Position numbers and translations under genes: made by a program. A model generated the notes under the pieces. That model had not been told where the DNA came from, searched no databases, and worked only from the letters and a program-made list of their open reading frames with translations. A stretch of DNA of 64,000 nt from contig OX597836.1 of the NCBI GenBank assembly GCA_951406725.2, forward strand, positions 682,001-746,000, given 5' to 3'. This document shows, in pieces, positions 34,708 to 38,000 of this stretch (positions are counted from its first letter, which is position 1; each line of letters begins with the position of its first letter). The stretch is from Octopus vulgaris. Its lineage: Eukaryota.

Positions 34708-34960
34708 ATAATATAATATGTATAACACACACACACACACACACATACACATACACAGATGTACATATAAACATATCATGAGCATGTCTATGTATATACA
34801 CTGCTGTGCATATAGAAACATATGTACAGTCATTTATATAAACCAGGCAAAGCTTACTGAAGTCAAGTTTGAATTGATGCAAATAATATTTCCCTGTTCT
34901 GGTTCCTACGACTGCATTGTTGACACAGAGAGTAAAAAGTAGCAAATAAGACCTTCTTAC

Positions 34961-35002
34961 CTGGCTTGCAACAACAACAATACAAATGCTTGATAAACTT
35001 AC
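34961..35002 (-). other. Candidate recursive splice site with 42-nt RS-exon/microexon (phase 0 VSLSSICIVVVASQ)
   Basis: Minus strand TTTTCCCTTTTTCTCTTTCTTCCAG|GTAAGTTTATCAAGCATTTGTATTGTTGTTGTTGCAAGCCAG|GTAAGA. Branch-like TTAATGAC about 40 nt upstream. Confidence 0.7.
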
Positions 35003-38000
35003 CTGGAAGAAAGAGAAAAAGGGAAAACATAAAATATTGTCATTAAAATGTTTTATAATGGAAACATTTTCAATAAACTGATTAATCTTTTTATGACTGT
35101 ATTTCTAATGAAATATACTATCTCTATATGTTTAAATGAATTTTAAAAAATATTTAATAATTTAGAGTGCTTCATTGATATAACTACATTTATCATTATG
35201 AAGCTGGTGTTTGGAACATAATGTAAAATTATCATGGAAAATTTTAAGAGCTTCTGTATCAAACAACTCAAAGTGGACCTTAAGACAGTTTGTATGAAAG
35301 GGTTAACCATTGTACTTCAAATTTCATTTTTTACAAATTTCATTAAAACCAAACCTAAATTTTTAACATCTGAATTGGCAAAAGCAATGAAACTTCCAAA
35401 ATCTATGCTATACAACTAAGAGGAATGACAAAAACTATAGTGAATTAGAGATCAAAATACAATTTCCTTAAAATACTTTTCTGGTGAATTAGATATACTC
35501 AGCCTTTAACTAACAAACATTATTACCCAACATGATTCATTATTTGTATAATACATTCACACCGATTATAGTCATCTCTTCTGCATCTATTATCAAAAGT
35601 TTAAGATGCACATTTCAAACTGGCATATCTGATTTACAGGTATTTTTTCCTCTTAATGTAGATCTGCATCTTGCTGTTAGCTGATTGGTATACTTCTTGA
35701 ACACACTTCATATCTACTTTTACTACCATACAATATCCTACACTTAATATATACTTTTTATAGTCCGCTACATACAGAATCACACAGCTTACACAAGCCA
35801 CATATAATTCATAATATTCACTGTTCACCTTCCACTACCATCACATCTTACACACATGTGTAGTCAGCTATGGTCCCTGTCTGTGGTTCACTACCATATA
35901 TCACATACCTCATGTAGTCCTCTACATTTATTGCCATGTTTCACTTCAGTACATCATCATCACACATTGCACTTAGACTTTAGGATGTAGTGCTGAATTC
36001 TAGTGCCATTGTATGGTGTTTGCTGTGGTAGTCTGGTTATGTTAAATATGGTGTGTTGTAAGGTAATCTGGCTATGTTAAGTGAAAGGTGGTAGTGTGTG
36101 TTTTTCAGATATTTGTGTAGTGTGTATATATAATGGATAGAATACAGTGCGTGATTGTACAAGTGGATGAATAAGTGAGTGTGTATGCATGAATCTTATG
36201 TATTTGTATATGTATTATGAGTATGTTAGCATGCATGTACATGCATGTGTGTGATGATGTTTGGGTTGTGTATTTTTATATGCCATGTATATGAACTTGT
36301 GTGACGTGGTGTGTGAGAATATCTGTTTGCTTATGTGATGTCATGACTGAGTGCATGTGTGTGTGTAGAGCTGACACCAAAGTTAGTGAAGTGTTAGTGA
36401 AGCTAGAGTTGAAATTGAAACATGTGATATTTGTCACAGTTCTTCATTAAAAGGTCAATGTCGCACATCACTGCAACTGAAGCATTTCTTCATCAACAAA
36501 CATCTTCACTTTTGCTCTTTGCATAACACGTTACCATTACCACCACCTTCCTCCTTCTCACCACCACCACCACCTTATTATCATTCCATATGCATCATCG
36601 TAACCAGCATTATCACAAAAGCTGTCATCATAATCATCATCATCAACCACATCACCGTGCCTCTCATCATTACTACACTTACTACTACCGCATATATATA
36701 TATATAAAATCAACCTTTTTTCTATATAAATACCCCCATATATATACCATCATCACTACTAAAGCAACAACACTCTCAATATCAGAATCACTTACTCTAC
36801 CAGAACAAACAAAAGACATTCAAATATCAAAACCGAAAAACTACTACATTTACTCCAACAATGCCATTACTACATAGAAGAGCAACAACATTACTGTTGT
36901 TTATACCACAATCATCTCAATATTTTTATCGCCATTACCACCACCACTGCCACCACCACCACCACCAACAACAGAATCATCATTAGTGTCATTACCACTG
37001 CAATAACAGTACACTAGCAACCATCACTATTGCTGCACCATACAAGAACTACAGTTCCTTCACCAACACCACAACCTCATCATCCACCATCTCTTTTGCT
37101 GCCACAACAGCTGTTTCCCTACTACCACCACTTCCTCCTCCATCTCCATAATAATTACAATACCATTATTACTACCACGACCACCACTACAAAATCAATA
37201 ATCGCCTCTCCAGAGATTAACCTCCAGCTTAAAATCTTTAAGCTCATCGACAAACAAAATGAGCAGTATTCTTCAAACAATTTTGTATTTCGCCTGGAAA
37301 AATTTAGTATCTGCACACTGCTGCAACAGCCACCGCTTATTCTGTTCTGCTGTTTTTGTGCAACTTTAGATTCCCATTATACAGAATAGATAGGTGAGAG
37401 AGAGAGAGAGAGATTTCATGTTCAACTAATGACTTGAGGGATGTCTTGCACTTTCCATTTCATACATAATATTGCATGGTGGTAATTTTGTTGTTTCTGA
37501 TTGCTAGTGTGGTTTGATAGTAGTGCTGATAATGCTGGTGGTGGTGTTGGTGTCGATGGTAGTGGTGTTGGTGGTGAGGAAACTATAGTTATTGTTGTTG
37601 TTGTTGTTGAATTGTGTAGTGTAAGTCAACACCAGCAGATTTATGACACAGAGGTTGTTGTTGTATAGCCCTAGGTCAACCTTTATTAAGCAGACTTATG
37701 GCCAAAGGTATTCCAGCTGTGACTATCCTGTCCTTTTCTTATATGCAGGAATCCAGGACCACATTATCCAGTCTGAGTGAAATTTTGTTGTTATTTCTAA
37801 CAGGTTCAGAAACAATAGCAAGATCCTCCAATTGGTTTGTGGTACAGAAGTCTGTTTATGTTGTTAAGCATCAACTCAACCCTGATTAAATAGTCCACCT
37901 GTGACCATCTCATCTTTTCTTTTCAGATATAGAACTTTTCTTTTCTTTTTCTATAGTAAGGTGTGAGATGAGGGAGATTTGACAACTGTTTCTAACAGAG

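Follow-up and report, generated by a model that had tools for sequence, protein, structure and literature searches.

The window, meaning the whole 64,000-nucleotide stretch of Octopus vulgaris DNA that was analysed, lies inside a minus-strand gene that is the orthologue of couch potato/RBPMS/mec-8. The exons of this gene, which were located by examining flanks of 150 kb downstream and 350 kb upstream of the window, encode an RRM of the RBPMS type (with PDB matches to RBPMS, RBPMS2, and MEC-8) and show 99-100% identity to octopod couch potato proteins. Since exon 1 ends at C23:971252 and exon 2 starts at C23:663220, the whole window falls within the first intron, and the gene is laid out around it as follows (contig positions carry the prefix C23; all others are positions in the window).

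G000:C23:971252 (end), minus strand: exon 1 (MRSNEMT...PEEE), placed by its match to octopod proteins
G000:C23:971251-663221, minus strand: intron 1, 308,031 nt, phase 0, with the protein junction EEE|VRTLF
G000:C23:682001-746000, minus strand of the gene: window positions 1..64000, wholly within intron 1 according to the exon mapping of the host gene
58794..58826, minus strand: cassette exon of 33 nt (LSTLTTRGQFE) that opens with CAG|TTAAGT and has been annotated in O. sinensis, O. bimaculoides, and Argonauta
12358..12396, minus strand: cassette exon of 39 nt (TEENLTSTETSPT), annotated in the same three octopods
G000:C23:663220 (start), minus strand: exon 2 (VRTLF...), placed by its match to octopod proteins

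The two short exons had been put forward as candidates in an earlier sequence-only reading of this DNA, and both are real exons annotated in octopods. In the 18 octopod isoforms that carry the canonical exon 1, the 33-nt exon is present in 14 and skipped in four, and the 39-nt exon, which is likewise skippable, is present in 12; both are used in 11 isoforms, the 33-nt exon alone in three, the 39-nt exon alone in one, and neither in three. The same reading had suggested that the exon at 58826 may be a ratchet point converted into a constitutive exon; its CAG|TTAAGT start was correctly read, but an exon skipped in four of 18 isoforms is not constitutive. The acceptor of this exon has TT at -6/-5 and its first bases are one base off GTAAGT, and its descent from a decayed ratchet point that lost its donor is plausible but unproven; genome-wide, strong acceptors leading into TTAAGT show no excess over those leading into CTAAGT (7 vs 7).

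Other variation was noted in the gene and its intron. Just left of the window, at G000:C23:679666 on the minus strand, is an alternative first exon (MVEENLPSAFW), which has a counterpart in P0145; it is downstream of all five of the fused splice sites described below and therefore bypasses them. Two similar 18-codon exons, GYQNALLKVMGKPGKNC and GYEGSLLKVTNKNGKNTS, are found within the RRM at G000:C23:647495 and 635588 (minus strand), and isoforms carry one, both, or neither, a choice that would alter or break the RNA-binding domain. The window also holds reverse transcriptase ORF fragments (YADD) with broken frames at 31404-32572 (plus strand), 45628-46489 (plus strand), and 14754-15510 (minus strand), which we take to be LINE-like, and a degenerate (TA)n microsatellite of 1.2 kb at 27989-29176.

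Between the two cassette exons, at 35002, an acceptor is fused directly to a donor, with a second donor a short distance on, and the elements of this site are listed below in the order in which they are met on the minus strand.

35046-35039, minus strand: predicted branch-point-like sequence TTAATGAC, with a candidate A at -41 or -38
35003..35027, minus strand: 3' splice site, with acceptor AG at 35004-35003 behind a pyrimidine run and TT at -6/-5
34997..35002, minus strand: candidate ratchet-point donor GTAAGT
34961..35002, minus strand: putative 42-nt cryptic RS-exon VSLSSICIVVVASQ, open in phase 0
34955..34960, minus strand: RS-exon donor CAG|GTAAGA, with GT at 34960-34959

The position and layout given for the site in the sequence-only reading (a tract of >20 nt, AG at 35004-35003, GTAAGT, and a donor 42 nt on) are confirmed, as is the branch-like sequence placed upstream of it. 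The unbroken pyrimidine run measures 23 nt (35027-35005), the acceptor is preceded by an AG-free zone of 73 nt, and the candidate branch adenosines lie slightly farther out than most branch points of fly ratchet points, which fall at -36 to -21 (10.1101/006163). Twelve AG|GTRAG sites occur on the two strands of the window, and the one at 35002 is the only one with a strong tract (20/20 pyrimidines, against 5-12 in the rest). The surrounding 301 nt are single-copy in the 2.8-Gb genome, save for weak matches to their own AT-rich 5' end. Exon 1 and the 33-nt exon both end in GAG, and joining either of them to 35002 would give GAG|GTAAGT, which is exon 1's own donor; with the approximate weight matrix of our own from which all donor scores are taken, the RS-exon donor at 34960 scores 7.5 vs 8.2 for the rebuilt ratchet donor, a small margin on an approximate scale. 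A different reading frame for the 42-nt exon, KFIKHLYCCCCKP, was rejected because intron 1 is in phase 0.

The distances from the site to the exons at 58826 and 12396 are 23.8 kb and 22.6 kb, respectively, in agreement with the near-midway position claimed earlier. The accompanying proposal of a 46-kb intron removed in two steps of about 23 kb fits the isoforms that carry both cassettes (11/18), but the unit to be explained is the 308-kb first intron with its five sites; where both cassette exons are skipped, the segments flanking the 35002 site are 50.8 and 53.8 kb. Intron 1 was scanned for YAG|GTAAGT preceded by 20 nt of which 16 or more are pyrimidines (the count is unchanged at thresholds from 12 to 16). 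This returned five fused sites on the gene strand, the last of which is the site in the window and the other four of which are outside it.

G000:C23:896085, minus strand: ladder site, second donor at +45
G000:C23:856437, minus strand: ladder site, second donor at +38
G000:C23:807793, minus strand: ladder site, second donor at +49
G000:C23:767841, minus strand: ladder site, second donor at +43
G000:C23:717002, minus strand: fifth ladder site (35002 in the window), second donor at +42

Within intron 1, strong acceptor-like sites number 178 on the gene strand, of which 5 lead into GTAAGT, and 140 on the other strand, of which none does. Five ladder sites compare with 0.037 expected (Poisson P 6e-10) and with 0.03 on average over 100 local dinucleotide shuffles, and the pattern is absent from 124.5 kb upstream of the intron and from 131 kb downstream of it. 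The sites divide the intron into segments of 75.2, 39.6, 48.6, 40.0, 50.8, and 53.8 kb, and a smallest segment as large as 39.6 kb has P 6e-4 for five uniformly placed points. The first segment (75 kb), in which there is no clear site, is longer than the longest fly segment of 63.6 kb (10.1101/006163), a point against the ratchet reading. All five sites share TTNCAG|GTAAGTT, and hence TT at -6/-5. An origin of the ladder by segment duplication was rejected, the sites having no collinear homology beyond the motif, and no depletion of repeats was found around them (P 0.26).

At each of the five sites the second donor is weaker, on the approximate matrix, than the rebuilt GAG|GTAAGT. The earlier claim of a ratchet point combined with a short cryptic exon is supported. 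The RS-exons of 38, 43, and 49 nt would shift the frame and the 45-nt one stops at codon 3, so that the 42-nt exon alone among the five keeps the frame and has no stop; its second donor is also the strongest of the five. The in-frame inclusion of this exon that had been predicted is not borne out, since it occurs in 0/23 octopod sequences, among which the main octopod cluster is covered by the 15 of its 39 members that were listed. Similarly, five RS-exon peptides (one for each open or frame-shifted exon and two for the 42-nt exon) are absent from 145 proteins, 23 of them octopod; these 23 are predicted proteins from gene models and not reads. Because it is in frame and has the strongest second donor, the 42-nt exon would be the ladder member likeliest to leak into mRNA at a low level.

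Genome-wide, with counts that may be lower bounds, the strict pattern Y10-TT-N-CAG-GTAAGT has 73 matches and its reversed control has 0. Its one-base variants GTAACT, GTAAWT, GTAAGV, and HTAAGT have 10, 40, 35, and 15 matches, respectively, so that the nine variant hexamers, some of which are themselves valid donors, reach 100 together with a mean of 11; the GTGAGT version of the pattern has 22. Strict sites are also clustered, with nine adjacent pairs 20-500 kb apart against 0.91 expected, all nine of them on the same strand, and with no such pair among 65 control sites. Of 30 strict sites fetched from the 73, 12 have a donor at +25..+80, compared with 1.55 in control windows, 0/20 for the GTAAWT variant, and 3/15 for HTAAGT. 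The remaining 18 have no donor scoring >=3 in that interval on our matrix.

Several of these sites occur in groups elsewhere in the genome. At G000:C13:4468681, 4550882, and near 4805417, three plus-strand sites of the form CAG|GTAAGTAC are followed by a second donor around +46 to +50; in 200 kb of this contig, two plus-strand sites carry CAG|GTAGG (+46 and +50), and a minus-strand site that looks strong has no second donor. Because this minus-strand site and 18 of the 30 fetched sites are without a clear second donor, the motif alone is no proof. No host coding exon was found in the 200 kb of C13, and the sites there therefore probably lie in another giant recursive intron. Same-strand groups of strict sites at G000:C6:97123276/97256261, C8:15104034/15244988, C8:50884187/51020681, C9:104955602-105622522, and C23:40186291/40454876 are candidate ladders. 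Compared by eye with homeobox and RRM maps, the strict sites show no obvious co-location. A 41-bp tandem array of about 730 nt at L187:1366-2093 (G000:C5:65397866-65398593, minus strand) has units that end alternately in TTTTGCAG|GTAAGT and TTTTGCAG|GTAAAC, and is an amplified acceptor-donor junction.

The site at 35002 has the anatomical features by which a ratchet point is recognized, namely juxtaposed strong splice sites in a long intron, a position on the transcribed strand, an even division of the intron, and a weaker second donor. Because five evenly spaced fused acceptor-donor sites are present in intron 1, six-step removal is likely, and on the sequence evidence we regard it as likely that the 35002 site, as one of the five, is a functional fly-type ratchet point and that the 308-kb intron is removed in six steps of 40-75 kb. 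In the fly work, a cryptic exon is defined first, its acceptor is spliced to, and the RS-exon donor then loses to the rebuilt donor, which makes the exon vanish; weakening of the rebuilt donor turns on RS-exon inclusion (PMC8605326). Applied to the octopus, the 42-nt cryptic exon would be defined during transcription by its own acceptor and its CAG|GTAAGA donor, after which the upstream exon would be spliced to 35002, rebuilding GAG|GTAAGT. The rebuilt donor would outcompete the weaker RS-exon donor, and the 42 nt would be discarded in the following step, when the 39-nt exon or exon 2 is joined on, leaving an mRNA without a trace of them. This skipping of the RS-exon after intermediate splicing, which we infer from the fly work (PMC8605326), would matter because the four other RS-exons shift the frame or stop at codon 3.

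Three other explanations appear very improbable. The best placed of them takes the 42-nt exon for an ordinary, rarely included cassette microexon (e.g., a neural one), with an incidental GTAAGT start and a 35002 donor that is never used. The exon is indeed in frame and stop-free, its acceptor is strong, none of the other four has as good a second donor, and the 33-nt and 39-nt cassette exons of the same intron are genuine. Such a microexon would nevertheless leave unexplained the four sister sites that are led by GTAAGT and either lose the frame or stop immediately, it accounts for neither the even spacing nor the genome-wide motif excess, and its absence from all 23 octopod sequences also speaks against it. 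By a shade less probable are five regulated poison exons that tune the level of couch potato via nonsense-mediated decay, with recursive skipping as a by-product. Four of the five RS-exons would disrupt the frame, and autoregulation by poison exons is frequent among splicing regulators. No GCAC element, a motif of the RBPMS family according to the title of PMC5311487, was found within 150 nt of any of the five ladder sites, however. Moreover, a poison exon needs neither a donor at its first base nor even spacing, and the 42-nt exon itself is not a poison exon. The least probable explanation is that no splicing takes place at the motifs, which would be dead remnants or decoys for U1 binding or spliceosome loading: long introns do require U1 sites against premature cleavage, but U1 decoys have no need of a long pyrimidine tract, an AG, or an AG-free zone, and dead sites would not all retain a perfect TTNCAG|GTAAGT and a second donor.

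The protein junction interrupted by the octopus intron was also surveyed in other animals, at the level of gene models and protein sequence. A total of 382 proteins were gathered, 338 of which contain the VRTLFVSG anchor, and several carry short optional inserts at EEE|VRTLF. Inserts that open with Val-Ser or Val-Arg, the residues that an exon led by GTRAG would encode, are found in ixodid ticks (VSVP..., 18 aa), Rhodnius (VSNG..., 13 aa), Cimex (VSQT..., 17 aa), Tribolium (VRAA..., 12 aa), and Penaeus (VSRA..., 31 aa). All five occur after two or more different upstream sequences and are therefore internal exons and not read-through of the exon 1 donor, although for Penaeus (EEE or EEEQ) the case is weaker. 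Val-Ser or Val-Arg is not the opening of three other internal exons, namely the decapod FCPLSQ and the two octopod exons. The random baseline in six couch potato proteins is 0.8% of positions for VS and 2% for V[SRN], and the G bias at exon starts lifts the baseline for Val-led dipeptides somewhat. In addition, a VSCDQIAFALPDQ insert is present in three transcripts close to octopod proteins (P0135, P0143, and P0144), after one upstream exon only; this and other V-led inserts that follow a single upstream exon may be donor read-through, and the DNA of the Val-Ser insert of P0144 was in none of 46 loci from a metagenome scan. No insert follows the canonical exon 1 in the bivalve, abalone, and brachiopod sequences listed, and an acceptor before VRTLF is also found in genomic fragments from other animals. 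The Val-Ser/Val-Arg exons of arthropod couch potato look like members of the expressed, donor-led class of RS-exons.

Fly couch potato has an intron of proven recursive splicing, showing two ratchet points and three lariats (10.1101/006163). The first coding exon of the fly gene is exon 5, and a primer assigned to exon 6 reads EVRTLF (PMC5012703), which places an intron of the fly gene at the same EEE|VRTLF junction. Couch potato is absent from those supplements of PMC6110457, PMC8906543 (file 10 excluded), and PMC8605326 that were searched. The octopus and fly genes are orthologous and carry five and two sites, respectively, and the likeness is drawn at the level of the gene, not intron by intron. 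It is conceivable, although we lean slightly against it, that recursive splicing of the EEE|VRTLF intron is ancient and common to cephalopods and arthropods, with its ratchet points continuing to yield new exons. If so, the octopus would run a genome-wide ratchet system of the fly type on introns of vertebrate size.

Recursive splicing has been characterised in flies and vertebrates, and no description of it in an octopus, a cephalopod, or a mollusc was found in the literature searched, which did not extend to subscription papers. A five-step ladder in a mollusc, together with the genome-wide statistics, would extend fly-type ratchet points to a third major lineage of animals. As the orthologue of a proven recursive gene of the fly, the host gene offers a direct test of whether recursive splicing is inherited with particular introns or re-invented where introns grow. 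The cryptic, near-donor, and expressed exons at this junction likewise offer a natural series for how ratchet sites become exons.

Compared with known systems, the octopus sites most resemble those of fly introns such as luna, kuz, and Bx, in that an acceptor with a strong tract and TT at -6/-5 is fused to a donor, a cryptic exon follows that measures about 50 nt, has a weaker donor, and is mostly out of frame, and several sites are evenly spaced in one long intron, with five in luna (10.1101/006163; PMC8605326). TT at -5/-6 is found in 196 of 197 fly ratchet points, which occupy introns of 11-133 kb divided into segments of 2.6-63.6 kb (10.1101/006163), and fly ratchet points are enriched in first introns (PMC6110457). 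The octopus differs from the fly in scale, since its intron measures 308 kb where the fly maximum is 133 kb, and its segments of 40-75 kb compare with a fly average of 18 kb. Its sites belong to a mollusc and are known from sequence, whereas the fly sites have been shown to be used. The Ubx microexons mI and mII (51 nt, led by GTAAGA) are, like the 42-nt exon, short, in frame, and led by a donor; they are included in mRNA, unlike the octopus exon in the sequences surveyed, and the latter could behave as an expressed RS-exon of the mI/mII type. Vertebrate recursive sites lie in very long introns and share with the octopus the size class of intron and the mechanism of RS-exon competition proposed here, with only nine fully suppressed mammalian sites noted (Sibley 2015, through PMC8605326). 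With five sites in one intron and dozens genome-wide, the octopus is fly-like and unlike the mammalian pattern.
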